Positions 9,474-43,142 of a stretch of DNA of 64,000 nucleotides are shown here, in pieces (positions within the stretch are counted from its first letter, which is position 1; each line of letters opens with the position of its first letter). The DNA lies in assembly GCA_040414485.1 (NCBI GenBank), contig JBEDUK010000013.1:10570-74569 (forward strand), read 5' to 3'. The notes below the pieces were generated by a model. That model worked only from the letters and a program-made list of their open reading frames with translations. It was not told the origin of the DNA and made no database searches. The stretch is from Actinomycetota bacterium (GTDB lineage Bacteria; Actinomycetota; UBA4738). Made by a program: the position numbers and the translations under genes.

Positions 9474-11023
9474 GCGGATCGGTGATGCTCGAGGACCGTC
9501 CCGCCGGCGACGGCGAGGCGAAGGTCGCCCAGGCGCGAGAGGGGCTCGCCGCCCTCGATGCGCACCTTGCCACGATCGACGGGCGGCCCGTCGGCCCCGA
9601 CGAGCGCAACGAGATGATCGGCCTCGTCCTGTCGGTCGACGAGACCCTCCGTGAGCTCGAGATGTGGAGCGGCAATGGGTCGGGCGAGCCGACGGCGCCG
9701 CCGCGGCGGCGGGGTCTGCACTTCCGGCGGCACAAGGTCCGCACGGATACCGGCGGTCCCGTGAACGGCGAAGATTCGAACGCCACCGTGGTCCTCGACC
9801 GCGTCGAGCCGGGCACGAAGATCACGGCCGAGACCGCGCCTGCCGAGCTGATCCCGGTTCAGCCGATGCCCGTCGCACCGTCGCCGCCGCCGCCGACGGC
9901 GACGCCGCCGACGGCAGATCAGCCATCGCCGGTCGAACCGACGCGGGTCGAGGGACCCGGCGCCGCGCCGGATGAGCGCGTCTCGATCGACGAGGAGTAC
10001 CGGCAGGACCTTGCGGCCCGCGTCAGGGCGCTCCGCGCCGAACTCGACGAGCGCGCGGGCCGGGTGCTCGTCCTCACCACCGATGAGCGGCAACGCCCGC
10101 GCCGGCGGCTGGCCGGGTTGTTCGGCTCCATCGGTCAGCCGGCGACTGCAGAGACCGCCGCCACGACGGCGACCCTGCCCGCCGCGCTCAGGAGCCGCCG
10201 ATCCGTCGAGCGCTCCGTGGGAAAGGTCCTCACCGCCGCGGGAGTCATCGCCGTGCTGTTCCTGCTGTTCGAGTTCGGCCTGACCGGCTCCCTCGAGGCG
10301 CGGGACCAACGGGCGCTGCTGCTCCAGTTCCAGGACGCCATCGTCACGACGAACCTCGACCTGCCGAACAAGACCATCCCGTCGGGTACGGCGGTCGCGC
10401 TCATGAACATCCCGTCCATCCACGTGAGTCAGGTGGTCGTCGAGGGCACGACCAATCGCCTGCTGAAGGCGGGACCGGGCCACCTCGCCGCCGCCCCGCT
10501 GCCGGGCGAGTTCGGCAACGCGATCATCCTGGGGCACCGGACGAAGTACGGAGCGCCGTTCCGCAGCCTGAACCTGCTCCATACGGGCGACCTGATCAAC
10601 GTCACCACCGGGCAGGGGTTGTTCGTCTATTCGGTAAACCATGTTTACCACTTGAAGTCCGGCGACCCGGATGTGTTCGCCGGCTCGACCGATTCGCGCC
10701 TGACACTCGTCAGCGCTGACCCGCCCCAGGGGGCGAGCGGCCGCATCGTCGCCGTCGCACTCCTCCGAGGGAGCCCGGTCGCCGTCGACACGCGCCCGCC
10801 GGTGCCGGTGGGCCGGGACGAACTGGGGCTTTCGGCCGATCCGGTCGGCGCCGTGTTCGGCCTGATCTGGCTTCAGGTGTTCATCGTGGCGTACCTGATC
10901 ACCCGTCGTATCCGTCGGACGTGGAACCCCACCGTGACGTGGTTGCTCGCCGCGCCGATCCTGCTGGCCCTGCTGCTGCTCGTGTTCATCAACGTCGACC
11001 TGCTGCTGCCGGGCACGCTGTAA
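9470..11023 (+). CDS. class E sortase homolog with active-site Cys replaced by Ala (TLVSA instead of TLxTC); long Pro-rich N-terminal cytoplasmic extension and C-terminal TM helices
   Basis: VVEGTTNRLLKAGPGHLAAAPLPGEFGNAIILGHRTKYGAPFRSL...GDLINV...YSVNHV...SRLTLVSADP; GTG 9470 overlaps upstream stop (GTGA); catalytic His (GHRT) and Arg retained. Confidence 0.6.
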   Translation: MSGSVMLEDRPAGDGEAKVAQAREGLAALDAHLATIDGRPVGPDERNEMIGLVLSVDETLRELEMWSGNGSGEPTAPPRRRGLHFRRHKVRTDTGGPVNGEDSNATVVLDRVEPGTKITAETAPAELIPVQPMPVAPSPPPPTATPPTADQPSPVEPTRVEGPGAAPDERVSIDEEYRQDLAARVRALRAELDERAGRVLVLTTDERQRPRRRLAGLFGSIGQPATAETAATTATLPAALRSRRSVERSVGKVLTAAGVIAVLFLLFEFGLTGSLEARDQRALLLQFQDAIVTTNLDLPNKTIPSGTAVALMNIPSIHVSQVVVEGTTNRLLKAGPGHLAAAPLPGEFGNAIILGHRTKYGAPFRSLNLLHTGDLINVTTGQGLFVYSVNHVYHLKSGDPDVFAGSTDSRLTLVSADPPQGASGRIVAVALLRGSPVAVDTRPPVPVGRDELGLSADPVGAVFGLIWLQVFIVAYLITRRIRRTWNPTVTWLLAAPILLALLLLVFINVDLLLPGTL

Positions 11024-11035
11024 GGGTCACGCTCG

Positions 11036-11485
11036 ATGCCGAGCCGCGGACGATCGGTCGCTCCGGCTGCCTTGCTCGCCATCGCCGTGCTGGCGGCGGC
11101 GTGCACCTCGGGCGCGAGCGCGAACACACCGACCTCGCCGCCGGTACGGCCGACGCCGTCCCGGTCGGCAGGCTCGCCCGACCCGAACCGGGAGCGTGAC
11201 CATCCCGATCCGAACTTCGACTTTGGCTTCACGATCCGCATCACCGACCAGGGCTTCCACCCGCAGTGGCTGGTGTCGTTGTGCTGCAAGCCGGTGACGT
11301 GGATCAACGACACGAACGCGCCGGTGAAGGTGGTCTTCGACCATCAATCGGTCCGATCCGGCCAGATCGCGCCCGGGGGCACGTTCGTGTGGAAGCCGAA
11401 GAACGTCCAGAGCGTGACCTACCACGACGCGGCCGATCCGAGCCGCCACGGGATCATCCAGGTCAATCAGTCGTTCGAGTCCTGA
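11036..11485 (+). CDS. putative lipoprotein, unknown function
   Basis: lipobox LAAAC after n/h-region; high GC3; 149 aa. Confidence 0.5.
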   Translation: MPSRGRSVAPAALLAIAVLAAACTSGASANTPTSPPVRPTPSRSAGSPDPNRERDHPDPNFDFGFTIRITDQGFHPQWLVSLCCKPVTWINDTNAPVKVVFDHQSVRSGQIAPGGTFVWKPKNVQSVTYHDAADPSRHGIIQVNQSFES

Positions 11486-12156: not shown

Positions 12157-12248
12157 CCGCCCGCGAAGCCAGAACCCCACACCTACGACCCGAGAACCCC
12201 TGCCGGACCGATCCCGGCCTCCCGACGCGTGCCCGCCGGTTGCCATCC

Positions 12249-12299
12249 GTTCACGCAATCGCCCCCGCCCGTTCGTCGTCCATCCTTCGTCCGTTCGGA
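12249..12299. promoter_or_regulatory. degenerate PHO-box-like repeats: CCGTTCACG (12247), CCGTTCGTC (12269), CCGTTCGGA (12291) at exact 22-bp phasing
   Basis: read from sequence upstream of PstS-like 3. Confidence 0.3.
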
Positions 12300-12474
12300 G
12301 ACGAGCCACAGCGACGCAACCTCCCGCGGAGAGACTCCTGCCCGCTGATCGCACTTGAACGACGTGCCGAAAGGGGGGAGGGCGTTCGAGGACGTGAATG
12401 CACGGTGGTTCTCGCACGGCAGGATGGATCTGGCCGCTGAAGCGCCGGGTCATTTCGATTCCGAAAGGCAGGCG

Positions 12475-13668
12475 ATGATCAAGAAGACGAAGAGTCGCCG
12501 GCTGGGGCTCATCGGTGCGGTGATCGTGGGCAGCAGCGCCCTGTTCATCTCCGCGGCGATGCCGGCAGGGGCGACGGGAGGTGGCGGACCGGTCGCGGCG
12601 AGCGTGCTCGGCAGCGGCTCGGACACCACGCAGTTCATGATGAACGCGATCGATAACCTGTACCTGTTCAGCCCCGGGTGTTCACCCATCCCGACGCAGG
12701 GACAGAACGCGTGGCTGGACTTCAGCTGCGAGTCCCCTGACCCGCCGAACACGATCCTCTCTGAGAACTACAAGCACGACCAGGTGCACGAGGCCTACTT
12801 CCTGGGGTCGAGCAACGGGATCAAGCAGCTGTGCTCGCAGGGACAGTCGGGCGTGGCCCGCATCGACTTCGCCCGTTCGTCGCGCGGTCCCGGGAGCAGC
12901 GACTGCACCGGGCTGAAGTTCGTTGCCTACGCGCGTGACGGCATCTCCTGGGAGGCCTTCAACATCAAGGGCTCCGGTATCAAGAACATGAACAACCAGA
13001 ACGGAACCTGCGCGGGGTCCGGCGGGGACACGCAGTTCTGTCTGACCCAGAGTCAGCTGAACGGCATCTTCGTGGCCTGCACGATCACGAACTGGAGCCA
13101 GGTCGGCGGCAACAACCTCAAGTTCGCCATCTACACGCCCCAGGCCGGGTCCGGGACACGCTCCACCTGGGACGGGTTCGTCGGCGGCGACTCATCGCAT
13201 TGCATCCCGGCCGGCCAGCAGAGCACCCACATCGTCCCGGAGAACGACAACACGGCCATCTTCAACAACGGCGACCAGAAGAAGGCCATCTTCCCGTTCT
13301 CTTTCGGTGTGTGGACGCAGCGCGTCCACGGGCAGCACAAGGCGATCCTCGGCGCCATCGACAACGTCCCGGTGAACAAGGACACGATCGCCGATGGGTC
13401 GTTCCCGTTCGGCCGCTTCCTCTACAACGTCTACTGCACCGCGTCGTGCTCGAGCGGTGCCTCGGAGGACGAGGCCGTCACCTACGTGGGTGAGGAAGGC
13501 TGGATCTGCAAGCTGGACGCGGACCACGCCAACGACCCGGCCACCGGCGCGAACTACCGGACCGAGATCGCGAACGCCATCTCGGCGAGCGGGTTCGTCC
13601 CCGTGCCGAAGGGTGTCATCGGCGGCGGTGACACGAACCAGGACTACTGCAGGTTGTTCAACCACTAG
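12475..13668 (+). CDS. secreted Cys-rich PstS/PBP-superfamily-like protein (third PstS-like paralog)
   Basis: signal peptide MIKKTKSRRLGLIGAVIVGSSALFISAAMPAGA; GSSNGIKQL...IDFARSSRG and AGSGTRSTWDGFVGG resemble PstS GSGAGIRQF/VDFGASDAP/DGSGTSF motifs. Confidence 0.55.
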   Translation: MIKKTKSRRLGLIGAVIVGSSALFISAAMPAGATGGGGPVAASVLGSGSDTTQFMMNAIDNLYLFSPGCSPIPTQGQNAWLDFSCESPDPPNTILSENYKHDQVHEAYFLGSSNGIKQLCSQGQSGVARIDFARSSRGPGSSDCTGLKFVAYARDGISWEAFNIKGSGIKNMNNQNGTCAGSGGDTQFCLTQSQLNGIFVACTITNWSQVGGNNLKFAIYTPQAGSGTRSTWDGFVGGDSSHCIPAGQQSTHIVPENDNTAIFNNGDQKKAIFPFSFGVWTQRVHGQHKAILGAIDNVPVNKDTIADGSFPFGRFLYNVYCTASCSSGASEDEAVTYVGEEGWICKLDADHANDPATGANYRTEIANAISASGFVPVPKGVIGGGDTNQDYCRLFNH

Positions 13669-13836: not shown

Positions 13837-14082
13837 CGGGGAGCCGGACGATCGCCGGGGTGGCGAGGGGCGAGGAACATCCGGCCGACAGGAATCATGC
13901 AGAGCCCGGATGACCACGTGCGGTCCCGCACGCGACCGGGAAATGAACGGTCATCACGGCAAACGGTCCACGGAGGCGGGCGTTCTTCCTGCTCGTGCGC
14001 CGCGCGTGGCCGCGCACGATTCACCGGACGGTCGACCTGCGTTCATCGCTCGGCCATCCGGCCGCTGCACCGTGCCGCGTGC

Positions 14083-15327: not shown

Positions 15328-15788
15328 CTGCGGTCGTCCGGCTCGTCCGGCTCGGACGGCTCGAACGGCTCGAACGTCGCAACGAGCTCGCGATCATGCG
15401 GGTAGGTCAGCCGGGCGAGCGCCTGCTGCACGGGGAGCCAGGCGATCGCGTCCACCTCGTCGCCGGGTTCGAACGACCCCTCCCCCGATCCCGGTCCGGC
15501 GCGCATCTCGAAGTAATTGACGGCCTTCGGCGTGCCGGACGCGTCACGGTAGGAGATCGTTCCGAGCGGCCGCACGATCTGGCAGCGCACTCCGGTCTCC
15601 TCCCACACCTCGCGCAGCGCCGCGGTGACCTCGTCCTCCCCGGGCACGAGCTTGCCCTTGGGCAGGCTCCAGTCGTCGTACCTGGGGCGGTGCACGAGCA
15701 AGATCTCGACCGCGCCGTCGTCCCCGCGCCGCCTGACGATCCCGCCCGCGGCCCGAACGGTCCCTGCCCCGGTTCCAGTTCCGATCAC
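15324..15788 (-). CDS. NUDIX hydrolase
   Basis: Nudix box GKLVPGEDEVTAALREVWEETGV; GTG 15788 overlaps CHAD gene stop (GTGA). Confidence 0.8.
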   Translation of the reverse strand: MIGTGTGAGTVRAAGGIVRRRGDDGAVEILLVHRPRYDDWSLPKGKLVPGEDEVTAALREVWEETGVRCQIVRPLGTISYRDASGTPKAVNYFEMRAGPGSGEGSFEPGDEVDAIAWLPVQQALARLTYPHDRELVATFEPFEPSEPDEPDDRR

Positions 15789-17428
15789 GTCCACGCCTTC
15801 GGCCGCTTCGCCTTGACGCGCTTCCACGCCTCGCGCCACGTGTCGCGGGTCTGCGCCGCCGACCACCGCTCCAGACCGGCCAGTTCGCCCGCGACGAATG
15901 CCGTTCGGGCCGAACGCGCCCGTGCCGCCGCCTCCCGGAGCCAGCGGGCGGCGACGACGGCGTCGTTGTGCCGGCCCAGCACATCCTGGAGCCCTGCCGC
16001 CGCCTCGCCGAGATCCCGCGCCGGCTTGCCCAGCAGGGGCGAGACGGCCTCGGTCGCGTACCGAAGGCGCTTCGCCCTGATGCGGACAGCGTGAAGCCCT
16101 TCGTCGGACGGAGGATCGTCAAGCTGCTTGACGGCCTTGCGCAGCCGGCGCCATGGCTTGCGGAGCAGATCGGGGAGCGTGGCGCCCGCGGGCAGGTCGG
16201 CCTCGAGCAGCAGCGCCGGCTCGTTGCCCGCGTTCACCAGCCGGTCGAGGACCTGCGCGTACCGCGGTTCGCGCATGGCCTCCAGGAGATCGGCCCGCGC
16301 GATGCGGCGCTCTTCGGACATGCGATCGAGCAGCCGTGCCCCTGCCTCGCGGTCCGGCCCCTCGAGCGCCTCGACCCGGTCGGTGAGGAGCTCCATCAAC
16401 ACGTCCGCGTCGCGCGCGGCGCCGAGCTTGTCGGCGAGCCAGTGGAGGTCGTCGACCAGATGAGCGGCCCACGTCGGATCGAGGAGCGGCGCGAAGGTCC
16501 TGAGGTCCGAACGCAGCCGCCGGGTGGCGACCCGGGCCTGGTGGACGCCCTCCGGATGGGCGTCAAGGCGGACGACGGCGTCGTGCTTGAGCAGCCTGAT
16601 CACCGACGCGGCGATGGCGTTCCGGACGACCGCGCCCGCCGTCGCGCCCGCATGCAGTTCGGCCACGGCCAGCTCGGCCGGGCCCGTCGCCCGCGGACCC
16701 ACCGCCCGGATGTACTTGGTGGTCGAATCGGGTTCGCCCGCGCCGGCGTCGCGCAGGAGCGAGACGATCCGCGCGAGGAGCTCGTCCGTCGCTCCTTCGC
16801 CCGCCTCCACCTCGAGCTCGCGGAAGCGCGCGGCGAGCCGGCGGCCGTCCATGACCGACACCTCGTCGTCGACGATCTCGGCCACGCGGCTGCCCGGCGC
16901 CTCGTCGGACGCCACCGCCGGCCCGACCGCGTCCGCGTCGCCCTCGCCGTCCATCACGGCGTCCGGGACCCGCACGACCACCGAACGCCGCAGTGTCCGC
17001 AGGCGGGTGACGGGCACGACGTCGGCCGTTCGCACGTACGCGCGCAGCAGGTCGATCGCTCCCGCGGGAGGTTCCTTCGGGCCGCCGTCGAACGTGACCT
17101 CTTCGCGGATCAGCGCGTCGCCCTCCGTTTCGGGCGGAAGCTTGACCGTCCAGCCTTCGGTGTCGCGATACCGGAGGCTGCATCCCCATCGCGCAAGCCG
17201 AAGGTCCGGTGTGTCGAAGTAGGTCGTCCGCTGCGTCCTCGGCTGGGCGACCTCCACCTGGAGCCCGTCCAGCGCCTTTGCGAGGTCCGGCAAGCGGAAG
17301 GACGGCGCCGCGGCGAGCTTGATCTCGCGCTCGGGGGCGTGGCGTACGGGCTCGTGCCGCGCGGTGGCGGCGGAGGCCAGCTCCAAGCCGCCCCGCCCGC
17401 CTGGTTCCTGAGGCGCGGTGTCAGCCAC
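15785..17428 (-). CDS. CYTH (triphosphate tunnel) + CHAD domain protein
   Basis: N-terminal EREIKL...CYTH fold region, C-terminal CHAD helices (RVATRRLRSDLR, RIRAKRLRYATE); start uncertain (17428 GTG or 17473). Confidence 0.7.
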   Translation of the reverse strand: MADTAPQEPGGRGGLELASAATARHEPVRHAPEREIKLAAAPSFRLPDLAKALDGLQVEVAQPRTQRTTYFDTPDLRLARWGCSLRYRDTEGWTVKLPPETEGDALIREEVTFDGGPKEPPAGAIDLLRAYVRTADVVPVTRLRTLRRSVVVRVPDAVMDGEGDADAVGPAVASDEAPGSRVAEIVDDEVSVMDGRRLAARFRELEVEAGEGATDELLARIVSLLRDAGAGEPDSTTKYIRAVGPRATGPAELAVAELHAGATAGAVVRNAIAASVIRLLKHDAVVRLDAHPEGVHQARVATRRLRSDLRTFAPLLDPTWAAHLVDDLHWLADKLGAARDADVLMELLTDRVEALEGPDREAGARLLDRMSEERRIARADLLEAMREPRYAQVLDRLVNAGNEPALLLEADLPAGATLPDLLRKPWRRLRKAVKQLDDPPSDEGLHAVRIRAKRLRYATEAVSPLLGKPARDLGEAAAGLQDVLGRHNDAVVAARWLREAAARARSARTAFVAGELAGLERWSAAQTRDTWREAWKRVKAKRPKAWT

Positions 17429-19547
17429 GTCGGACGACCCGCCGGTCCTTCGCGCTGGCGCGGGCGAGGGCACGCTCCTGGAGCCGCTGCTGCGCGTCGA
17501 TGCCCGCGCGCGTGGGGACCTTCGTGTAGCAGCCGTCCGGCCCCAGGGTCCACGCCAGCATGTCGTCGGACATGCAGATGTCCAGGATCTCCTGAAGCCG
17601 TGCTTTCAACACGGGATCCTTGACCTCGACGGTCGCCTCCACGCGCCGGTCGAGGTTCCGGGGCATGAGGTCCGCGGAGCCGATGAAGTACCGCGCCTGC
17701 TTTTCCTTCGCGCCGAACCGGAAGATCCGCGAATGCTCGAGGTAGCGCCCGACGATCGAGCGCACGCTGATGTTCTCCGACAGGCCCGGCTCGCCCGGGC
17801 GGAGGCAGCAGATCCCGCGCACGATGAGGTCGATCTTCGTGCCCGCCTGCGAGGCCTCGTAGAGCGCGTCGATCATCTCGGTGTCCACCAGGCTGTTCAT
17901 CTTCAGGATGATGCGGCCCTCGGGGGCGGCGGCCTGTTCGGCGATCAGCTCGATCAGACGCGAACGAAGGCTCATGGGCGCGACCAGCAGGTTCCGGTAG
18001 CGCGTCTGCCGGCTGTACCCCGTGAGGTAGTTGAACAGGTCGGCCACGTCGGCGGTGAGGTCCGGGTCGGCCGTGAGCAGGCCGACGTCCTCGTAGGCCT
18101 TCGCCGTGTTGGGGTTGTAGTTGCCGGTGCCAACGTGGCAGTAGCGCCGCACCCCGGATGCCTCCCCTCGGACGGCCAGGGAGATCTTCGCGTGGGTCTT
18201 CAGGCCGACCACGCCGTACAGCACGTGGACGCCCGCCCGCTCCATCAGCTTCGCCCACCCGATGTTCGCCTCCTCGTCGCCCCGCGCCTGGAGCTCGACC
18301 AGCGCCACGACCTGCTTGCCACCCTCGGCGGCGCGGATCAGCGAGCGGACGATCGGGCTCTCGCGGTCGGAGGTCCGGTACAGGGTCTGCTTCAGGGCGA
18401 GCACCGCCGGGTCGCGCGCGGCCTGTTCGATGAACTCCTCGACGGTGGCGTCGAAGGACTCATACGGGAGGTGCACGAGGACGTCGCCGCGGCGAAGCAC
18501 GTCGAACACGTCGGTGGGCAATCCTTCCTCAGACGGGGCGAGCCGTCGCGGCGTGATCCCGGCCCACGGCTCGTCCTTCAGCTCCGGCCGGTCGAGCGCG
18601 TAGAGCGTCATCAGGCCCGAAGCATCGAGCAGGCTGTCGACCACGTAGACGTCCTCGTCATCCAGCTCCAGTTCCTGGATCAGCCGATCGAGCACGTCCC
18701 TGGGCATGGACGCGCCGACCTCGAGCCGCACGACCTCAGGCGACCGTTGGCGGAGCCGGACGAAGGATTCGATCGCGGACAGGAGATCCTCGCCCTCGTC
18801 GATCTCGATATCGAGGTCCGCGTCGCGCGTGACCCGGAACAGATGGTGGGCGACGATGTCCATGCCGGGGAACAGGGCCGTCACGTTCGCGCCGATGAGC
18901 TCCTCCAGCGGGATGAAACGGACCCCGTCGGGCAGCGCCATGAACCGGGGAAGCAGCGGAGGCACCTTCACGCGGGCGAACCGCCGCACCTGCGTCACCT
19001 TGTCCCGCACGACCACGGCGAGGTTCAGCGAAAGGTGCGAGATGTACGGGAACGGGTGCGCCGGGTCGACCGAGAGCGGCGTCAGCACGGGGAACACGCG
19101 GTCGCGGAAGGTGCCCTCGAGGTACTGGCGGTCCTCCTTCGTCAGGTCGTCCCAACGGACGATCGAGATCTTCGACGCGTCCATCGCCGGGATCAGCTGC
19201 TCGGCGATCACGCGTGACTGGCGGTCGACCAGCGCCTGAACCCGCGCGCGGATCGCCGCGAGTTGCTCGCCGGCGGTCATCCCGTCGGGCGTGGTGGACG
19301 AGAAGCCCGCCTCGACCTGCTCGCTCAGACCCGCCACGCGGATCTGGAAGAACTCGTCCAGGTTCGAACTGAAGATCGCCACGAAGCGCGCGCGTTCGAG
19401 CAGCGGGCGGTGCTCGTCCTCAGCCAGCGCGAGGACGCGTTCGTTGAAGTCGAGCCAGGAGAGCTCGCGATTGATGTACCGGCCCGCCACAGGCACGCGC
19501 GACGGCCTCTCGCGAGCCGTGTGGAGCCGTTCGTTCGTGTCGACCAT
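17421..19547 (-). CDS. ppk1: polyphosphate kinase 1
   Basis: 708 aa; RYINRELSWLDFNERVL...FIGSADLMPRNLDRRVE hallmark PPK1 motifs. Confidence 0.95.
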   Translation of the reverse strand: MVDTNERLHTARERPSRVPVAGRYINRELSWLDFNERVLALAEDEHRPLLERARFVAIFSSNLDEFFQIRVAGLSEQVEAGFSSTTPDGMTAGEQLAAIRARVQALVDRQSRVIAEQLIPAMDASKISIVRWDDLTKEDRQYLEGTFRDRVFPVLTPLSVDPAHPFPYISHLSLNLAVVVRDKVTQVRRFARVKVPPLLPRFMALPDGVRFIPLEELIGANVTALFPGMDIVAHHLFRVTRDADLDIEIDEGEDLLSAIESFVRLRQRSPEVVRLEVGASMPRDVLDRLIQELELDDEDVYVVDSLLDASGLMTLYALDRPELKDEPWAGITPRRLAPSEEGLPTDVFDVLRRGDVLVHLPYESFDATVEEFIEQAARDPAVLALKQTLYRTSDRESPIVRSLIRAAEGGKQVVALVELQARGDEEANIGWAKLMERAGVHVLYGVVGLKTHAKISLAVRGEASGVRRYCHVGTGNYNPNTAKAYEDVGLLTADPDLTADVADLFNYLTGYSRQTRYRNLLVAPMSLRSRLIELIAEQAAAPEGRIILKMNSLVDTEMIDALYEASQAGTKIDLIVRGICCLRPGEPGLSENISVRSIVGRYLEHSRIFRFGAKEKQARYFIGSADLMPRNLDRRVEATVEVKDPVLKARLQEILDICMSDDMLAWTLGPDGCYTKVPTRAGIDAQQRLQERALARASAKDRRVVRRG

Positions 19548-19678
19548 GTGTCCGCTGCCCCGGCGTTTGGAGGTTCGCCCACAGGGTACTCGACCACCGG
19601 CAGGGGCTGCCGAGCCGTGCGCTCCATGCCTGGTGAGCCGTGCGTTCCGGATGAACGACAGGCCTTCTCGGCGCGGTC

Positions 19679-19718
19679 GTTCACCGGACGTTCACCGTGT
19701 CGTGCCGGTCGATTCACT
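19679..19718. promoter_or_regulatory. PHO box: GTTCACC (19679), GTTCACC (19690), degenerate unit (19701), ATTCACT (19712) direct repeats at exact 11-bp phasing in ppk1/pstS divergent promoter
   Basis: read from sequence ~50-90 nt upstream of pstS ATG 19767. Confidence 0.55.
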
Positions 19719-19766
19719 TCCCACGCATAGCGTGCCCGTGGCCGCTCGACGACGAAAGGACGGCTC

Positions 19767-20849
19767 ATGAGACTTCCGCGCCCCCTCACCTGGACGGTCT
19801 GTGTCGCCGCTGCCGCGCTCGTCGCGGCGGGATGCGGCTCGAACGGCGGTGGCTCCTCGAGTGGCGTGCCCCTGACGGGCGCCGGCTCGACGTTCGCCCA
19901 GCCCATGTATCAGAGCTGGTCCCACTCGTACCTCTCGATCCAGTCGGGGGCCAAGATCAACTACCAGGCGATCGGTTCGGGCGGAGGCGTGCAGCAGTTC
20001 ACCTCGAAGACGGTCGACTTCGGCGCGACGGACGTGCCACTGCAGCAGGACGAGATCTCGGCGCTGCCGTCCAAGAACTACATCGAGTTTCCGACCTGCC
20101 TCGGCGCGGTGGTCATCGCGTACCACGTGACCGGCCTGCAGAGCGGCCTGAAGCTCGACGGCGCGACCGCCGCCGGCATCTTCCTGGGGAAGATCACCTC
20201 GTGGAACGACCAGGCCATCGCCGCGCTGAACCCGGGCATGACGTTGCCGAACACCCCGATCCACACGGTACACCGTGCCGACGAGTCGGGGACCACCGCG
20301 GTGTTCACCGGATGGCTCGCGAAGGAGAGCTCCGACTGGGAGAGCCAGGTCGGATCCGGTAAGGCCGTGCAGTGGCCCGGCGGTACCTCGGCCAACGGAA
20401 GCGACGGCGTCGCCGCGGCCGTGAGCCAGACCGACGGTGCCGTCGGCTACCTCTCCTACGACTTCGCGGTCACCGCGAACCTCGGCATCACCGACATCAA
20501 AGCGCCCGACGGCACGTACGTGGCGCCCTCGATCAAGTCGATCACCGCGGCCGGCGGCGGCCTGTCCTTCCCGATCACGCCGACCACGAACATCCTGGAT
20601 TCGTCGACGCCAGGCGCGTACCCGATCGCCAGCACGACGTACGTCCTGATCTACACGGACCAGACGAACCAGGACAAGGCGCAGACGCTGTCGAACTTCT
20701 GGACCTGGGCGCTGACCAAGGGCCAGAGCGCGACCACGGCGATCAATTACGCGCCTCTGCCGTCGTCCGTCGCGCAATCGGCGCTGGCGGAGGTCAAGAA
20801 GATCAGCGTCAACGGCACGGCCGTGACGCCCTCGGTCGGATCCTCCTAA
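19767..20849 (+). CDS. pstS: phosphate-binding lipoprotein PstS
   Basis: lipobox LVAAGC; near full-length similarity to E. coli PstS (IFLGKITSWNDQAIAALNPGMTLPNTPIHTVHRADESGTT). Confidence 0.95.
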   Translation: MRLPRPLTWTVCVAAAALVAAGCGSNGGGSSSGVPLTGAGSTFAQPMYQSWSHSYLSIQSGAKINYQAIGSGGGVQQFTSKTVDFGATDVPLQQDEISALPSKNYIEFPTCLGAVVIAYHVTGLQSGLKLDGATAAGIFLGKITSWNDQAIAALNPGMTLPNTPIHTVHRADESGTTAVFTGWLAKESSDWESQVGSGKAVQWPGGTSANGSDGVAAAVSQTDGAVGYLSYDFAVTANLGITDIKAPDGTYVAPSIKSITAAGGGLSFPITPTTNILDSSTPGAYPIASTTYVLIYTDQTNQDKAQTLSNFWTWALTKGQSATTAINYAPLPSSVAQSALAEVKKISVNGTAVTPSVGSS

Positions 20850-20856
20850 CCCGGGC

Positions 20857-21897
20857 GTGTCGGTCGCAGCGGGAGCCCCGGAGGCGTTCGCCGGTCCCTC
20901 GTCCCTGACGGGGCACGGACGGTCGCGGCTGGCCGACCGGTCGTTCGGCCGTGGGTCGATGGCGATCGCGTTCGCGCTCATCGTCCTCCTGGCGCTGATC
21001 ATGTGGGTGCTGCTCGACGGCAGCATCCGCATCTGGCAGACCGAAGGCCTGAGCTTCCTGGTCGGCACGAACTGGAACCCCGTGCCGGGCCGCGAGCAGT
21101 ACGGCGCGTTGCCGTTCATCTACGGAACGGTGGTGACCTCCGTCCTGGCGATCGCGCTCGCGGTCCCGGTTTCGGTGAGCCTGGCGCTGCTGCTGAACGA
21201 GGGGCCGGTCGGGTGGCTTCGGCACACGCTCGCTGTCCTGGTCGACCTGCTGGCGGCGATCCCGAGCGTCGTGTACGGCCTGTGGGCGGTCTTCGTCATG
21301 CTGCCGATCTTCGACCACCACGTCGAGCCGTTCCTGACGGACACGATCGGCAAGGTGCCGATCATCGGCTCGTTGTTCCAGGGCAATCCTGCCGGCGGCG
21401 ACATGTTCACGGCCGGCGTGATCCTGGCCGTCATGATCCTGCCGATCATCACGGCGGTGAGCAGGGAGGTGGTCGCCGTGGTTCCGCGAGACCTCCGTGA
21501 GGCCGCCCTGGGGCTCGGCGCCACCCGCTACGAGATGATCCGGCTGGCGGTCCTGCCGTATGCGCGAAGCGGCATCGTGGGCGCGACCATGCTCGGGCTG
21601 GGCCGCGCGCTCGGTGAGACCATCGCCGTCGCCCTCGTGGTCGGAAATTCACCCACGATCAACGTCTCGCTGTTCCACGCGGGATACACGATCCCGGCCG
21701 TCATCGCCAACGAGTTCCGCGAAGCGACCAACGCGGGCCTGCACCGTTCGGCCCTGCTCGGGCTGGCGATCATCCTCATGGTGATCGCGCTGGTGATGGC
21801 GACCCTGTCGCGGCTTCTCGTGGGCCGGACGGAACGGCAGGCCGGTGTTCCGGCGGCGGACCAGGCGGATCTGACCGCGACGACGGGGCTGCAATGA
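20857..21897 (+). CDS. pstC: phosphate ABC transporter permease PstC
   Basis: GTG 20857; homologous to 2663..3682 product. Confidence 0.9.
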   Translation: MSVAAGAPEAFAGPSSLTGHGRSRLADRSFGRGSMAIAFALIVLLALIMWVLLDGSIRIWQTEGLSFLVGTNWNPVPGREQYGALPFIYGTVVTSVLAIALAVPVSVSLALLLNEGPVGWLRHTLAVLVDLLAAIPSVVYGLWAVFVMLPIFDHHVEPFLTDTIGKVPIIGSLFQGNPAGGDMFTAGVILAVMILPIITAVSREVVAVVPRDLREAALGLGATRYEMIRLAVLPYARSGIVGATMLGLGRALGETIAVALVVGNSPTINVSLFHAGYTIPAVIANEFREATNAGLHRSALLGLAIILMVIALVMATLSRLLVGRTERQAGVPAADQADLTATTGLQ

Positions 21898-22766
21898 GCG
21901 CCACCACCCTGGGACCCGGCCTGACGATCGCCCGCTCGCGGCGGGTGAAGAACACCGTGTTCATGGTGGTCTTGTGGGCCGCCGGCGCGCTGGCCCTGCT
22001 GCCGCTGATCTTCATCAGCGCCTACGTCGTGGTGCGTGGCCTGGCGGCGCTGAACATCGACTTCTTCACGCAGGAGCCCGTCCCGCCGCCGCTGCCGGGC
22101 GGCGGATTCGGACCTGCGTTCGTCGGCACCGGGATGATGGTCGGGATCGCCTGCCTGATCTCGATCCCCATCGGGCTGCTGTCGGCCGTCTACCTCTCCG
22201 AATACGGACGGGGGAAGGTTGCCAGCTCGGTGCGGTTCGTCGCCGAGATCCTGCTTTCCACGCCCTCGATCATCGCGGGCGCGTTCATCTGGGCGCTGGT
22301 GGTCGTGGCGCTCGGCAACTTCTCCGCCCTCGCCGGCGCGCTCGCGCTCAGCGTGATCATGTGGCCGATCATCACGCGATCGGCCGAGGAGGTCCTCCGC
22401 CTGGTGCCCCATGAGCTGCGCGAGGGCGGCCTCGCCCTCGGCATGCGACGCTGGAAGGTGATCATGCGCGTGGTGGTCCCCACCGCCGGAGCGGGCATCT
22501 TCACGGCCATCATGCTCGCCGTCGCCCGCGGCCTGGGTGAGACGGCGCCCATCCTGCTCACTGCGCTCGGCAACGACTTCTACAACACGAACCCGCTCCA
22601 ACCGACGGACGCGGTCACACTAAGGATGTTCAACTACGCTCAGAGCCCCTATCCGACCCAGCACTCCCAGGCGTGGGGCGGGGCGATCGTGTTGCTGTTC
22701 GCGGTCCTGCTGCTTTCGATATCCGCGCGAGTCCTGTCGGCTCGGCAGCAACGGAGGACGAGATGA
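21894..22766 (+). CDS. pstA: phosphate ABC transporter permease PstA
   Basis: ATGA overlap with pstC; permease EAA loop. Confidence 0.9.
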
Positions 22767-23604: not shown

Positions 23605-24327
23605 ATGAACGAAGTGCGAGGCAAGTTTCACCAGGAGCTCCGGGACCTCGAAGGGGAGGTCCTGCGCGTGGGCGACGAGGCGGCCGACATGGTGAGCCGC
23701 GCCGTCCGGGCATTGGTAAAGCGGGATGACGAATTGGCCCGGGGCGTGATCATCTCCGACGACGTCGTCGACCGCATGTATCTGGACATCGAACGCCGGA
23801 TCCTCGACGCGTTCGCCCTGCAGGCACCGGTCGCGTCGGACCTGCGCCTGCTCTCGACCATGCTGCACATCAACCTGCATCTGGAGCGGATCGGCGACCA
23901 GGCGGTCAACGTCTCGAAGATGTCCCTCGCGGCGCGGTCGCTCCCCTCCGACGAGACGATCATGCTGCACCTCACGGAGATGGGCGACATCGTCGGCGCC
24001 ATGCTCCGGACCGCGCTGGAGGCGTTCGCGCGCCGCGATCTCGAACTGTGCATGCGGCTGCCGGCCATGGACGATCCAGTGGACGAGCTGAACCGCGGGA
24101 TGTACCGGCACGTGGTTCGGCTTTCAGGCGACGCCGCGGCGCTCGAATGGGGCATCCGCATGAACGTCGTGGCGCGCCAACTGGAGCGCGTGGGCGACAA
24201 CGCCGTCGACATCGGGGAGCAGGTCGCCTACCTGCTCACGGGAGAATTCCGCGAATTCACGGACGCCAGTCACAGGGATGGTTCGGCATCGTCCGCAGAG
24301 GGGGACCATGGCGACGAACGGACATAA
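23605..24327 (+). CDS. phoU: phosphate signalling regulator PhoU
   Basis: two PhoU repeats (DxxxD motifs), 240 aa, ATG 3 nt after pstB stop. Confidence 0.9.
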   Translation: MNEVRGKFHQELRDLEGEVLRVGDEAADMVSRAVRALVKRDDELARGVIISDDVVDRMYLDIERRILDAFALQAPVASDLRLLSTMLHINLHLERIGDQAVNVSKMSLAARSLPSDETIMLHLTEMGDIVGAMLRTALEAFARRDLELCMRLPAMDDPVDELNRGMYRHVVRLSGDAAALEWGIRMNVVARQLERVGDNAVDIGEQVAYLLTGEFREFTDASHRDGSASSAEGDHGDERT

Positions 24328-25036
24328 CCGGCCGGCGGTGCTCATCGTCGAGGACGAGCCGGCGCTCGCCGACAGCATCCAGTACTCGCTCGAACGCGAG
24401 GGGTTCGACGTGGCGATCGCCGTCGACGGCGAACGTGCGCTCGAACGGTTCCGCGTCGCGTCGCCCTCGCTGATCCTGTTGGACCTGATGCTCCCGAGGC
24501 TTTCCGGTCTGGACGTGTGCCGGATCGTCCGGTCCGAGTCCACCGTCCCGATCATCATGCTGACGGCGAAGGACTCCGAGGCGGACAAGGTCGCCGGCCT
24601 GGAACTGGGCGCCGACGACTACGTGACGAAGCCGTTCTCCATGCGCGAGCTGGTCTCGCGCGTGCGCGCGCACCTGCGGCGGGCCGGAATGGTGACCGAA
24701 CCGCCCGAGGTCGAGGTGCTCACCGGCGGACCGGTCGAGCTGGACATCGCGCGGCACGAGGCGCGCGTCCGAGGCGAAAGGGTCGGGCTCACGCCGAAGG
24801 AGTTCGAGCTGCTCGAGACGTTCCTGCTCCGCAAGGGCCGGATGCTCACGCGGGACTTCCTGATAGAGGAGGTCTGGGGCGCGGACTATTTCGGCGACAC
24901 CAAGACGCTCGACGTCCACGTGAAGCGCCTGCGGCAGAAGATCGAACGCCAGCCGCACCAGCCGGAGCACCTGGTGACCGTGCGCGGGCTCGGATACCGG
25001 TTCCTGGACGAACCGCAGCAGGCGCCCACGGGCTGA
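24308..25036 (+). CDS. OmpR/PhoB-family response regulator, overlapping phoU 3' end by 20 nt; no adjacent histidine kinase
   Basis: REC (LIVEDEPA...DLMLPRLSGLDVCR...TAKD) + winged-helix (TVRGLGYRF). Confidence 0.85.
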   Translation: MATNGHNRPAVLIVEDEPALADSIQYSLEREGFDVAIAVDGERALERFRVASPSLILLDLMLPRLSGLDVCRIVRSESTVPIIMLTAKDSEADKVAGLELGADDYVTKPFSMRELVSRVRAHLRRAGMVTEPPEVEVLTGGPVELDIARHEARVRGERVGLTPKEFELLETFLLRKGRMLTRDFLIEEVWGADYFGDTKTLDVHVKRLRQKIERQPHQPEHLVTVRGLGYRFLDEPQQAPTG

Positions 25037-25062: not shown

Positions 25063-25713
25063 TCAGGTGCCGGGCGTGGTCGTGTGCCGGGCGAGATACG
25101 CGGCCGCCTCCGCCCGCCGGGCCACCTCGAGCTTCGACAGGATGCTCGAGACGTAGTTCTTGACCGTCTTCTCCGCGAGGTGCAGCTCCTCGCCGATCTG
25201 CTTGTTCGTGCGTCCGTCGGCCACCAGCGAGAGGATCCGTTCCTCCTGCGGCGACAGACGGGCCAGGCGTTCGTCCCGAAGGAGGTGCTTGCCCTTGCGC
25301 AGCCGGTCCAGCACGTTCTTCGTGACGGCCGGGTCGAGCAGGCTCTGGCCCTGGCCGACCGCCCTGATGGCGCGGACCAGCTCGCCGCTCTTGATCTGCT
25401 TGAGCACGTAGCCGCTGGCGCCGGCCATGATCGAGGCGAACAGCGCCTCGTCGTCGGCGAACGATGTGAGCATCAGCACCGCCGTCTGCGGGCGGCGCGC
25501 CCGGATCTCGCGGGTTGCCTCGATGCCGCTGCCGTCGGTGAGACGCACGTCCATGACCACGACGTCCGGCCGGCTTCGTTCGGCCTCGTCGATCGCCTCC
25601 TGGACCGAGCCCGCCTCGGCGGTCACCACGATGTCGTCGGTGGACTGGAGCAGAGCCTTGATGCCCCCGCGGACCACCTCGTGGTCGTCGACGAGCATCA
25701 CGCGCAGCGGCAT
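25063..25713 (-). CDS. NarL/LuxR-family response regulator, DevR/DosR-like
   Basis: REC + LuxR HTH (KQIGEELHLAEKTVKNYVSSILSKL); start ATG 25713 (alt GTG 25734). Confidence 0.85.
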   Translation of the reverse strand: MPLRVMLVDDHEVVRGGIKALLQSTDDIVVTAEAGSVQEAIDEAERSRPDVVVMDVRLTDGSGIEATREIRARRPQTAVLMLTSFADDEALFASIMAGASGYVLKQIKSGELVRAIRAVGQGQSLLDPAVTKNVLDRLRKGKHLLRDERLARLSPQEERILSLVADGRTNKQIGEELHLAEKTVKNYVSSILSKLEVARRAEAAAYLARHTTTPGT

Positions 25714-25786
25714 CCCACCACCGGTGCTGGTCACGGCGTCATGCTCCCATCTCGCGGGGCGACCCTCAAGCCGCCACGGACAACGC

Positions 25787-27436
25787 TCACAGCGGCAGGG
25801 TGACGCACACGGTCGTCCCCTCGCCCGGTTCGCTCTTCATCGCGAGCGTCCCGCCCAGCGACTCGGCGCGGTGCTCGAGGTTCCCGAGCCCGTTGCCCGA
25901 TCCCCGGGCGGCGGCCGGATCGAACCCCCGTCCGTCGTCGTCGATCTCGAGCATCGCGCCGCCCGTGGCGCTGAATCGCAGCTGGACCCGGCAGGTGACG
26001 GCGTCCGCGTGGCGCCCCACGTTCGACAGGGCCTCCCGGGTCATCTGGACGATGTCGGCCGCCTTCGATCCGAGCTCGGCCGCCACCCGATCGTCGATGT
26101 CGACCGCGACGGTGACCCCCGACTTCTGGGCGAAGTCCTCGGCGAGCTCTCGGAGCGCCTCGCCCAGCTGCCGATCGGCCAGGATGCCCGGCCGGAGGCC
26201 GAAGATGTAGTTCCGAAGATCGCGGATGACACGGTCGAGTTCGTTGACCGCGCCTTCGATCCTGGCCGAGATCTCGTCCTCGGCGATCATTGCCGTGCCC
26301 TGCAGTCCCATCCCGACGGCGAACAGTGACTGGATCACGCCGTCGTGGAGCTCCTTCGCGATCCGCTCGCGGTCCTCCATCACGACCAGCCGCTTGAGCT
26401 GCTCCTGCGCCCGCCCGTACTCGAGGGCGATCGACGCCTGATCGGCGAAGGACGCCACGACCCGGATGTCCTCGTCTGTGAACGTCCTGCCGGGAGCCCG
26501 GTTCGCGACCGTCAGCGTGCCGAACGCCTCGCCCTGTGCGGTCATGGGCACGACCACCGCCGGGCCGACGGAGCCAAGCCGAACGACCGGCTGATCGACG
26601 CGCTCGTCCGCGGACGCGTCGGCGAGCACCTGCGGCTCGCGCTTGCGGATCGCGTCGCCCGAGATGGACCCGTCCACGGGGAACCGGAGGCCGAGCAGCT
26701 CGTCCGCCAGGTCGCCCGTTGCCGCCTGATTGACGAACCACGAGCCATCCGTTGCGCGGACCGCGATCGTGGCCAGGTCGGCGCCGGCCAGCTCGCGCGC
26801 CCTGGCCGCGGCCAGCGTCAGAACCTCGGACGAGTCGCTTCCCGCGAGGATCGCCGTGCTGATCTCCCCGACCGCGTCCAGCCAGCGCTCCCGGCGTCGG
26901 GTCTCCTCGTACAGGTGCGCGTTGGCCACCGCGACGCCCGCCTGGGTGGCGAGCACCACCAGGTCCTCCTCGTCCTGTTCGGTGAACTCGGCCGCGCCCT
27001 GCTTCTCGGCCAGGTAGATGTTGCCGTAGACGCGCCCGAGCGCCTTGACCGGCGCGCCGAGAAACGACCGCATCGGTGGGTGATGGGGTGGGAAGCCCAC
27101 CGAGCGCGGGTCGTCGGCGATGTTCGTCAGGCGGAGGGGCCGCGCGTCCTCGATGAGCGCGCCGAGCACGCCGCCGCCGGTCGGGTAATGGCCGATCGCC
27201 CGCCGCGTCTCCTCGTCGACGCCGATCGTGACGAATTCCGCGATCCGCCCGTCGGCTCCCAGCACGCCGAGCGCGCCGTAGCGGGCGCCGCAGATCTCCG
27301 TGGCGGTCTGCACGATCCGCCGGAGCACCGCCGCGAGCGAGAGCTCCGAGGACAGAACCATGCCGGCCTGAAGCAAGGCGTCCTTGCGCGATGCGTGCTC
27401 CGCCCCCTGAGGAGACCTCGTCTCCGGGTCCGCCAT
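25787..27436 (-). CDS. GAF-GAF-histidine kinase (HisKA_3 + HATPase), DevS/DosS/DosT-like sensor
   Basis: two GAF domains, H-box ERERIAKELHDGVIQSLF, N/G boxes; 549 aa. Confidence 0.85.
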   Translation of the reverse strand: MADPETRSPQGAEHASRKDALLQAGMVLSSELSLAAVLRRIVQTATEICGARYGALGVLGADGRIAEFVTIGVDEETRRAIGHYPTGGGVLGALIEDARPLRLTNIADDPRSVGFPPHHPPMRSFLGAPVKALGRVYGNIYLAEKQGAAEFTEQDEEDLVVLATQAGVAVANAHLYEETRRRERWLDAVGEISTAILAGSDSSEVLTLAAARARELAGADLATIAVRATDGSWFVNQAATGDLADELLGLRFPVDGSISGDAIRKREPQVLADASADERVDQPVVRLGSVGPAVVVPMTAQGEAFGTLTVANRAPGRTFTDEDIRVVASFADQASIALEYGRAQEQLKRLVVMEDRERIAKELHDGVIQSLFAVGMGLQGTAMIAEDEISARIEGAVNELDRVIRDLRNYIFGLRPGILADRQLGEALRELAEDFAQKSGVTVAVDIDDRVAAELGSKAADIVQMTREALSNVGRHADAVTCRVQLRFSATGGAMLEIDDDGRGFDPAAARGSGNGLGNLEHRAESLGGTLAMKSEPGEGTTVCVTLPL

Positions 27437-27502
27437 CGGCGCGAGCGTACCATCGCCGGTTCGGGCGAAATCGCGACGTCCCGGCCGGGTCCCGCGTCGT
27501 CA

Positions 27503-31496: not shown

Positions 31497-31530
31497 CGAC
31501 CGCAGCGTAGCGCCGGTGACCGGCGGACGC

Positions 31531-32214
31531 TCAGCGGGTCGCGGCGGGTTCGGGCTCGCGCGCTTCCCGAACGTGCGGAGGGCTCGGGCGCAGGGGGACG
31601 GAGACGGACGCCGCCGCGGCCGCCCCTTCAACCTGTCGGCCGGCCCGCGCCCGGACCGCCGCGGGGGCGTTGGCGGGCACCGCCTTCCGCTGTGGACGCA
31701 GACCCGCGGTGAGCCCGCGCACCAGGACCAGGAACACCACGATCGCGGCCGTGGACACGTAGATCCACCACATCCACGGCCGGGCGGTGTCGGTTCCCGC
31801 GAACACCCCGTGGACCATGGCCAGCGAGAACATCGGCACGGCCAGGAGGTGCAGGCGCCGCCACCACGCCGGACCGACGCGCTTGCGGAGCCACGACGAA
31901 CAAAGGACCACCACGGTCAGGTACATCGCCAGGATCCCGGCCGCGACCGCGGGCGCCTTGAAGCTCGTGTGGAACGGCACCAGGACGTCGACCAGCGTGA
32001 ACGGCACGAATCGGTCGAGCAGGAGCCCGCCGAGGTGGAAGGTGAGGAGCGCCAACGCGGCCGTGGAGAGGAACTGGTGCACGGCCGTGGCCGTCGCCCG
32101 CGGCAGTCGCTTCCCGCCGATGGTCGTCGTGCCGGCCAGACCCCACGCCACGGTGCCGAACAGCATCACATACGCGCCGATGCCCGCGGCTCGGAGCACG
32201 ATCCACGTCAACAC
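31531..32214 (-). CDS. ferric-reductase-like (MsrQ/YedZ-like) transmembrane haem-binding protein
   Basis: 6 predicted TM helices with conserved His pairs (VHQFL...FHLGG; HLLAVPMF...VHGVF); GTG 32214 after GGGAGG SD, 4 nt after ApbE stop. Confidence 0.55.
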   Translation of the reverse strand: MLTWIVLRAAGIGAYVMLFGTVAWGLAGTTTIGGKRLPRATATAVHQFLSTAALALLTFHLGGLLLDRFVPFTLVDVLVPFHTSFKAPAVAAGILAMYLTVVVLCSSWLRKRVGPAWWRRLHLLAVPMFSLAMVHGVFAGTDTARPWMWWIYVSTAAIVVFLVLVRGLTAGLRPQRKAVPANAPAAVRARAGRQVEGAAAAASVSVPLRPSPPHVREAREPEPAATR

Positions 32215-37507: not shown

Positions 37508-37566
37508 GACGCAGCAAGTGTATTTCGCGGTCGCGGCTCTCCTCCGCCGCCTAGCCCGTCCACGGC

Positions 37567-37580
37567 GGGCCGACCGGCAC
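37567..37580. promoter_or_regulatory. inverted-repeat variant GGGCCGACCGGCAC 60 nt upstream of CoA-transferase gene
   Basis: recurring motif family. Confidence 0.3.
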
Positions 37581-37586
37581 GGCGCA

Positions 37587-37888
37587 TCAGGCCGCTTCTT
37601 CGGCGTCCTCTGGAAGCGTGGCCGTCTGCCCGATCTCGAGGCTGCGCGCCTTCGTGTAGAGCTTCCTCTCGCGCATGCCGAACGGCCAGATCCGCCGCTT
37701 CCGGCGCCGCTCGTCCCTCAGCCGGAGCGCTCGCGCCTCCTCGGCCTGCCTGGCGCGCTCCTCCTCCACGCCGGAATACGGCTTGCCCGCGACCTCTGCG
37801 TAGAACCGGCCGAGCTCGACGGCCTCAGCGTCGCTCAGGCCCACGCCCGCTGCCTTCTTCTCGAGCTGCTTCATCCGAAGCGCGTCCA
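37587..37888 (-). CDS. hypothetical charged coiled-coil protein (100 aa)
   Basis: ATG 37888 after GAGGAGG SD; no family assigned. Confidence 0.4.
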
Positions 37889-42963: not shown

Positions 42964-43142
42964 CGGTGCAGTGTCGCATCCCGACGGAGGCGATCGTCGC
43001 GGACTCGAAGTCCTCGTGCGCGCCCTTCGCCTCCATCTCACCTCAGGCCGAACGGCCGGTCGCGACGGGACCGACCGGCCGTGCTCGGCGGTTCGGGCGT
43101 CGACCATGCTGGGTAAGTGGTGTGGCTGGGAGGTGAGGTCTG

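Follow-up and report, generated by a model that had tools for sequence, protein, structure and literature searches.

What protein would read the GTTCAC-type direct repeats that stand upstream of phosphate-uptake genes in an uncultured actinobacterium, and with what effect on those genes? The locus that raises this question lies in a 64,000-nt stretch of DNA from Actinomycetota bacterium (UBA4738; GCA_040414485.1, contig JBEDUK010000013.1, positions 10,570–74,569 of the forward strand), which we refer to in its entirety as the window. We observed conserved GTTCAC direct repeats at three promoters, namely that between the divergent genes ppk (polyphosphate kinase) and pstS (site 1), that of an accessory pstC gene, pstC′ (site 2), and, in weaker form, that of a third PstS-like gene (site 3), and we found the gene for a response regulator within the main target operon. 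We consider it likely that the repeats are operators of the Pho regulon (PHO boxes), through which a regulator of the RegX3/PhoP family activates transcription when phosphate is low.

At site 1, the array is made up of four 11-nt units on the + strand (19679–19722), GTTCACCGGAC, GTTCACCGTGT, CGTGCCGGTCG and ATTCACTTCCC, with cores GTTCACC at 19679, GTTCACC at 19690, a unit at 19701 that is degenerate in every lineage, and ATTCACT at 19712, all of which fell where the original prediction had placed them. The PHO-box unit of Streptomyces reads G(G/T)TCAYYYR(G/C)G, and at least two units are needed (PMC2275107). Site 1 contains two consecutive 11-nt units (19679 and 19690), and its three core units matched in a test of the first seven positions against G(G/T)TCAYY. 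Because GTTCACC occurs 29 times in the window, compared with 6.9 copies expected, and mostly as a coding TTC-ACC (Phe-Thr) codon pair, a single copy is uninformative. The exact tandem GTTCAC-N5-GTTCAC was found once in both strands of the 64 kb (128 kb of strand), at site 1; no version with one mismatch occurred in these 128 kb, and matches with two mismatches were at the background level.

We then scored phased arrays of four 11-nt units with a weight matrix built from 26 units, all of them taken from the sequences of relatives. Site 1 ranked first in the window (28.8 bits) and site 2 third (20.1 bits), while site 3 scored 10.2 bits, which is background, given that 74 window arrays reached at least 10 bits. 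In Markov simulations, the highest score averaged 15.7 bits, and arrays of at least 20 bits arose 0.02 times per window. As a positive control, the top array that the matrix found in a Streptomyces locus was the validated phoU/phoR operator region.

The Ppk protein of the window shares 76% identity with its counterpart in L001, a metagenome-assembled genome (MAG) of an uncultured actinobacterium, and 60–66% with those of Gaiellaceae and other uncultured Actinomycetota. From these identities we take the host to be an uncultured, deep-branching actinobacterium and not a Streptomyces, its nearest named relatives being Gaiellaceae. The Ppk query retrieved relatives in a scan of the genome collection, whereas the PstS query retrieved none. 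An alignment of the ppk/pstS spacer (A3) covered five lineages, each with a regulator 81–100% identical to that of the window. Although the mean column identity was only 51%, GTTCACC of unit 1, CGTTCAC of unit 2, TTCA of unit 4 and a downstream TAGC-T were invariant, with unit 3 degenerate throughout, and invariant columns made up 22 of 26 core positions compared with 24 of 193 elsewhere (Fisher p = 8e-14). The layout of site 1 is thereby fixed as core, core, degenerate, core (C-C-x-C). The same tandem was present upstream of pst operons or ppk in eight loci (L001 and the more distant L006, L015, L016, L026, L032, L074 and L080) that represent several lineages of Actinomycetota, including Acidimicrobiales (L032) and Micromonosporaceae and Catelliglobosispora (L074 and L080).

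The arrays also keep a constant distance to a downstream hexamer. At site 1-type promoters, TAGCNT lies exactly 5 nt past the fourth unit in 10 loci, and in the window it reads TAGCGT (19728–19733, + strand), its first base 16 nt downstream of that of unit 4. Site 2-type promoters have four units, 5 nt and then CATGCT or CATACT, and site 3-type promoters have seven unit-lengths, 5 nt and then GAGACT, CAGACT, TAGGCT or CATCAT. We infer that these hexamers are −10 elements resembling the actinobacterial TANNNT, in which case the core of the proximal unit would occupy about −28 to −22 and that of the next unit about −39 to −33, and pstS transcription would start near 19740. The pho box of Escherichia coli PhoB has the same placement relative to the −10 element as proposed here for the proximal units. 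A consensus scan of the ppk/pstS intergenic region found no sigma-70-type −35/−10 pair, which fits, if weakly, an activator-dependent promoter.

At site 2, the array on the + strand (2543–2586; 20.1 bits) consists of GTTCACCGACG, the degenerate GGCAAATGTCC, ATTCACCCAAC and AGTCACAGACC, with cores GTTCACC at 2543, ATTCACC at 2565 and AGTCACA at 2576. The first two had been located correctly, but the in-phase fourth unit is AGTCACA at 2576 and not, as had been proposed, GTCACAG at 2577. Two consecutive 11-nt units (2565 and 2576) are present here as well, and the three cores were counted as matching G(G/T)TCAYY. L001 has no accessory pst cluster within 16 kb and was unusable for footprints of sites 2 and 3; a metagenome scan with the third PstS-like protein and homologues of a sortase encoded in the cluster was used instead. 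In L098 and L100, ATTCACC or ATTCACG and the adjoining (A/G)GTCA unit are kept and are followed by a common GACATGCT. Its conservation in L100 supports the −10-like CATGCT (2592–2597, + strand), which begins 16 nt downstream of where the last unit starts. CATACT stands at the same offset in L082, and arrays upstream of pstC′ scored 21.7 bits in L082 and 20.7 bits in L088.

Site 3 is a phased array on the + strand (12249–12303), GTTCACGCAAT / x / GTTCGTCGTCC / x / GTTCGGAGACG, its good units recurring at 22-bp intervals. CCGTTC occurs at 12247, 12269 and 12291, which puts the GTTC starts at 12249, 12271 and 12293, the coordinates and spacing that had been predicted. In the window, triples of CGTTC and of CCGTTC spaced by 22 bp occur only here, none was found at other spacings of 15–40 bp, and none appeared in 100 simulations, so the regularity is a non-random periodic feature. 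As a PHO-box-like element, it is weaker than had been implied. The window units GTTCACG, GTTCGTC and GTTCGGA fall outside G(G/T)TCAYY, but the orthologous promoter of L100 does match, with GTTCCAC-ATTCACC-x-GTTCACC-x-GTTCCGG at the site 3 offsets (24.6 bits). All eight loci with a homologous PstS-like gene (alignment A2) have three phased units, with GTT of the last unit invariant, and L084–L086 carry TTTCACC-GTTCR-GTTCG in phase; the window copy is the most degenerate among the loci compared. The putative −10 element, GAGACT (12331–12336, + strand), lies in phase with the array, 38 nt (16 + 22) from where the last unit begins, and the hexamers at its offset are CAGACT in L100 and L081, TAGGCT in L083 and CATCAT in L084–L086. 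The third PstS-like gene (PBP_like_2; 12475–13668, + strand) most likely begins not at 12355, as had been given, but at ATG 12475 (MIKKTK..., ribosome-binding site GAAAGG), a start that is consistent with Pfam and NCBIfam matches, an N-terminal signal sequence and the 397-aa call in L100.

We regard it as possible, if somewhat doubtful, that site 3 is the operator of another factor that reads a GTTC-type repeat, such as a paralogous regulator or the neighbouring GntR/UTRA regulator. TTCAC is present in only one unit, the score is that of background, the core conserved over the eight loci is GTTC and not GTTCAC, and the array stands far upstream, at about −94 to −50 counted from the presumed −10 element and 172–226 nt from the ATG. 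This explanation has to contend with the unique CCGTTC triple at exactly 22 bp, or two helical turns, with the canonical ATTCACC and GTTCACC at equal offsets in L100, with the phased units of L084–L086, and with the facts that the adjoining gene encodes a PstS-family protein and that a RegX3-like regulator adjoins the homologous gene in L081 and L082.

The candidate that we favor as the binder of the boxes is encoded at 24308–25036 (+ strand) and has a Pfam receiver domain and an OmpR-type winged helix, placing it in the RegX3/Streptomyces PhoP family. Its best start is ATG 24308 (ribosome-binding site GAGGGGG), which overlaps the phoU stop (24327) by 20 nt and agrees with an identical database protein of 242 aa. 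Among solved structures, its best match was Mycobacterium tuberculosis RegX3 (271 bits), followed by MtrA (217 bits) and M. tuberculosis PhoP (174 bits), with the PhoB receiver at about 95 bits; its homologues are named RegX3 by JGI, and no NCBIfam model reached its equivalog cut-off for this protein. In pairwise comparisons, the regulator shares 61% identity with Streptomyces PhoP and 58% with RegX3, and those two proteins share 73% with each other. The Streptomyces PhoP compared here (P0130) is a genuine one, its identity confirmed by its context, phoU divergent from a HisKA kinase gene and the regulator. The recognition helix, GDTKTLDVHVKRLRQKIE, is one residue away from those of Streptomyces PhoP (...RLRAKIE) and M. 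tuberculosis RegX3 (...RLRSKIE), the pattern common to the three being GDTKTLDVHVKRLR(Q/A/S)KIE. Alignments showed that the receiver retains the acidic pocket and the phospho-acceptor Asp, Thr and Lys, and the regulator should therefore need a kinase. The proposal that this "orphan" OmpR-family regulator binds the boxes is supported by its recognition helix, but it is an orphan only as regards adjacency. We also noted that in the more distant genomes L081, L082 and L088 a RegX3-like regulator (63–66% identical) is encoded immediately next to the third PstS-like gene or the accessory pst cluster and not after phoU, and that L082 has a 27.5-bit array in the region upstream of this regulator gene.

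The original prediction had further held that the boxes imply PhoP-type control as opposed to a RegX3-type inverted repeat. The direct-repeat layout stands, since we found no inverted GTTCAC pairs with up to two mismatches at the three promoters, other than the direct repeat itself, and all units have the same polarity. The contrast itself does not hold, because the regulator shares 58–61% identity and its helix with both proteins, and GTGAAC is the reverse complement of GTTCAC. The RegX3 half-site is described as GTGAAC in an inverted repeat in a passage of PMC7525159 that cites Glover 2007, and as G(T/G)TCAcc-n4-cG in a passage of PMC7884335 citing the same work, while at esx-5 RegX3 uses direct repeats with an obligatory 5-bp spacer (bioRxiv 10.1101/400960). 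Outside the central dinucleotide, GTTCAC and GTGAAC are the same, and this near-palindromy may be the reason for the conflicting descriptions of the RegX3 site. Neither PMC7866108, a review of phosphate systems in actinobacteria, nor the 2025 SenX3-RegX3/PhoU paper PMC12301784 contains a statement of PhoP/RegX3 equivalence, and we settled the matter by direct sequence comparison, by which PhoP-type and RegX3-type are one protein family with one half-site, and only the reported arrangement differs.

From these elements we propose the following mechanism. Under low phosphate, a PhoR/SenX3-type kinase encoded elsewhere would phosphorylate the regulator, whose dimers would bind head-to-tail on the strong adjacent units (units 1 and 2 of site 1, units C and D of site 2), with binding extending cooperatively to the weaker units, as in the class III operators of Streptomyces (PMC2275107). 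The bound regulator would recruit RNA polymerase to promoters that have no recognisable −35 element and activate their transcription. Because the regulator is the last gene of the activated operon and is translationally coupled to phoU, the operon would raise the level of its own regulator and induction would be self-amplifying, with the co-produced PhoU acting as a brake.

The kinase that this mechanism calls for was not found by adjacency: the regulator gene has phoU upstream and a convergent DevR-like regulator gene downstream. The pstSCAB-phoU-regulator arrangement without a kinase also occurs in L001, L093, L095, L096 and a further contig, with varying downstream genes, and in more distant relatives phoU and the regulator are kept beside ppk. 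In L098, whose regulator is 96% identical to that of the window, a PhoR/SenX3-like kinase gene (504–1787, − strand; 427 aa) is divergent from the accessory pst cluster; the encoded protein shares 44% identity with Streptomyces PhoR and contains both a PAS-like segment and an H-box of the PhoR type. Synteny between the window and L098 is lost upstream of window position 2495, and a search for an upstream extension of the window contig that might hold the kinase gave only a 1.6-kb Logan contig with the exact PstA′ protein. Most likely, the kinase is unlinked rather than absent. A less probable idea, which we put forward tentatively, is that the wiring in this deep-branching clade differs from that of a relocated PhoR-PhoP copy, with the regulator detached from its kinase as the last translationally coupled gene of pstSCAB-phoU and the kinase, in the genome where one was observed, placed beside a second, sortase-linked Pho-box pst cluster. 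Were this so, the regulator and PhoU would be made in a fixed ratio from the operon that they control, and the adjacent DevR-like system might also act on the same boxes.

Several observations weigh against our reading of the repeats as Pho-regulon operators. The units of the matrix were harvested by a search for GTTCAC-N5-GTTCAC, so that the core it recovers is partly circular, and the independent support comes from position, geometry and footprints. The −10 hexamers are putative, and every lineage has a degenerate unit 3 at site 1, over the −35 position, where occupancy would depend on cooperativity. Conservation of site 2 in L098 is partial, a 2-bp deletion there putting the distal unit A off the 11-nt phase, and the region upstream of pstC′ in L084 gave no scoring array. 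Site 3 in the window matches GTTCACC poorly (10.2 bits), and no HisKA-type (PhoR/SenX3) kinase was found among the window open reading frames (ORFs), leaving the cognate kinase outside the window.

If the boxes are Pho-regulon operators, they could serve ppk as well as pstS. We think it improbable that site 1 mainly or additionally represses the divergent ppk rather than only activating pstS, although the boxes are common to the divergent region, the tandems of L016, L074 and L080 lie directly upstream of ppk and in its orientation, and RegX3 regulates ppk1 in M. tuberculosis, as cited in passages of PMC6754071 and PMC7525159. The window boxes point towards pstS, and they stand about 95–140 bp upstream of the conserved −10-like TACCCT of ppk (19583–19588, − strand), which lies in a GGTTACTCGAC block conserved in alignments A1 and A3; that distance is too great for simple occlusion.

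It is less probable still that the DevR-like regulator beside the operon binds the boxes, instead of or in addition to the RegX3/PhoP-family protein, and places the genes for phosphate and polyphosphate metabolism under a redox or oxygen signal, a coupling that has been proposed for PolS-PolR in Microlunatus. This LuxR-family response regulator (25063–25734, − strand) is convergent with the RegX3-like gene and forms a pair (25063–27499, − strand) with a GAF/HisKA_3 kinase. Its best solved-structure match is DevR (185 bits), and the kinase is of the NarL type, with an N-terminal match to the GAF region of NifA and an L093 counterpart containing GAF and HisKA_3. The pair also adjoins the pst operon in L093 and L094, but this adjacency is not conserved in L095, L096 or the P0008 contig, in which the boxes are kept. 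LuxR/NarL-type domains, moreover, usually bind palindromes, and head-to-tail 11-nt repeats are a hallmark of the OmpR/PhoB family. A precedent for such a binder comes from Microlunatus phosphovorus, where electrophoretic mobility shift assays and footprinting were reported for the DevR-like PolR to GTTCACnnnnnGTTCaC at the pit, ppk and pstS promoters, yet the authors of that study themselves equate the motif with the PhoP site (PMC6754071). Further along in the window we noted a GNAT-linked ADP-forming acyl-CoA synthetase-like protein (28617–31631) and an acetyl-CoA hydrolase/transferase (36236–37717); L093 keeps the DevR-like regulator, kinase, GNAT-ligase and acetyl-CoA hydrolase together.

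That the repeats are chance by-products of a frequent GTTCACC in a GC-rich genome is highly improbable in spite of its overrepresentation, mainly in coding sequence, and of the many arrays of at least 10 bits, since the exact tandem occurs only once, the arrays of at least 20 bits that were observed sit at pst promoters where 0.02 per window are expected, and the units are invariant across lineages inside diverged intergenic DNA, footprints that effectively refute chance for sites 1 and 2.

We compared the boxes with known systems. The PHO boxes of Streptomyces coelicolor (Sola-Landa 2005, 2008; PMC2275107) are likewise 11-nt direct repeats whose first seven bases are GTTCACC, with core units beside degenerate "extension" units and with sites at pstS and a divergent ppk-linked region, and Streptomyces PhoP resembles the window regulator in overall identity and in its recognition helix. 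Unlike in Streptomyces, where phoU is divergent from phoR-phoP, the window regulator lies inside the pst operon after phoU with no adjacent phoR, the host is a deep-branching uncultured actinobacterium, and site 1 has the fixed C-C-x-C layout. Mycobacterial SenX3-RegX3 is similar in offering the best structure match, the GTGAAC half-site, the direct repeats at esx-5, and control of both pst and ppk; it differs in that inverted repeats are described in some papers, whereas the window units all run in one direction, and in that senX3 adjoins regX3, whereas the window regulator has no adjacent kinase.

Corynebacterium glutamicum PhoR belongs to the branch of M. tuberculosis PhoP and not to that of RegX3. 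Its sites at pstS do have an 8-bp tandem repeat with a 3-bp linker, giving an 11-bp periodicity, and their opposite strand reads TTCACAGG, but the motif itself is CCTGTGAAaatCCTGTGAA (PMC3353115), unlike that of the window; the original prediction had likened the boxes to the PhoP architecture of Streptomyces and Corynebacterium, and only the former likeness, to 11-nt GTTCAC direct repeats, is close, the latter being loose. The 17-bp Microlunatus motif is identical and is likewise found upstream of pstS, ppk and pit, but there it has been experimentally assigned to the DevR-like PolR (PMC6754071), while in the window we consider binding by the RegX3/PhoP-family protein more likely. In E. coli, the pho box of PhoB, as is generally known (see also PMC4415409), is likewise built of 7-bp repeats that run head-to-tail with an 11-bp period, and its proximal repeat ends about 10 bp upstream of the −10 element and takes the place of the −35 element; the core of this box is CTGTCAT as opposed to GTTCACC, and PhoB is a more distant protein (receiver about 95 bits).

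The window (69.9% G+C) holds two groups of phosphate genes, assigned with Pfam and NCBIfam, namely the core ppk/pst group and the accessory pst′ cluster. In the core group, pstS (19767–20849), pstC (20857–21897), pstA (21894–22766), pstB (to 23602) and phoU (to 24327) lie on the + strand, and the pstSCAB-phoU order is repeated in L001, L093, L095 and L096. The divergent ppk (17421–19547) and a CHAD/CYTH gene (15785–17473) lie on the − strand. A CYTH-CHAD protein, with triphosphate-tunnel and polyphosphate-binding domains, follows ppk in nearly all relatives, and the two together look like a conserved polyphosphate module; the corresponding region of L098 additionally contains NUDIX and His_Phos_1 genes.

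The accessory cluster, on the + strand, comprises pstC′ (2663–3682), pstA′ (3683–4870), pstB′ (to 5688), genes for two long PstS-like proteins (to 7348 and 7314–9473), the sortase gene (9470–11023) and a small secreted ORF (11036–11485), and is followed by a DUF308 gene, the third PstS-like gene and the GntR/UTRA regulator gene. It is kept in L082, L084, L086, L088, L098, L099 and L100, often with the third PstS-like gene included. The long PstS-like proteins are of about 590 and 720 aa, one of them with a neocarzinostatin/chromoprotein-like N-terminal domain, and both end in a hydrophobic helix and a basic tail; a motif search for LPXTG/LAXTG sorting signals in the PstS-like proteins found none. 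Upstream of the cluster, none of the ORFs from position 1 to about 2.2 kb shows a GC3 signature like that of coding sequence, and Pfam gave no match there. Two regions unrelated to the boxes are a hydrogenase region (44845–51400), with HypF, a hydrogenase maturation protease, NiFe-hydrogenase large and small subunit-like ORFs and an FAD/NAD oxidoreductase, and, beyond it, genes for a P-type ATPase, PFOR and alanine dehydrogenase.

Two further arrays were detected by the matrix. The second-best array in the window, GTTCAACATCG-x-GTTCATCAGAC (43138–43181, − strand; 20.8 bits), lies 45–85 nt upstream of an MFS transporter gene (41731–43096, − strand) and overlaps the start of a divergent small membrane ORF (43137–43601); it may mark a further member of the Pho regulon or be a chance match. 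A fourth PHO-like array, ATTCACCGGAC / GGTCGACCTGC / GTTCATCGCTC / GGCCATCCGGC (14019–14062, + strand; 16.4 bits, rank 4), stands just upstream of the GntR/UTRA (PhnF/PhnR-like) regulator gene, the probable real start of which is an ATG at about 14084. CACCGT follows this array after 5 nt, and the array is conserved in L098 (14335) and not clearly in L001.

The motif itself has already been described in Streptomyces, Microlunatus and, in effect, mycobacteria, and the PHO boxes imply no new mechanism here; as far as sequence can tell, theirs is a well-supported regulatory annotation of a known kind. What is new is the occurrence of boxes of fixed geometry in deep-branching Actinomycetota, the position of the regulator gene inside the pst-phoU operon and away from a kinase, and the fact that the putative regulon takes in an accessory pst cluster linked to a sortase. 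That regulon would comprise pstSCAB-phoU-regulator, the accessory cluster and the third PstS-like gene, and possibly the PhnF-like regulator and the MFS transporter. Recognizing PhoP-type and RegX3-type control as one system under two names should be useful for annotating Pho regulons in actinobacterial MAGs. These findings extend the GTTCAC-type PHO box and its exact promoter geometry to uncultured deep-branching Actinomycetota and to an Acidimicrobiales MAG, and this wide spread across lineages suggests an old, conserved operator-regulator pair.

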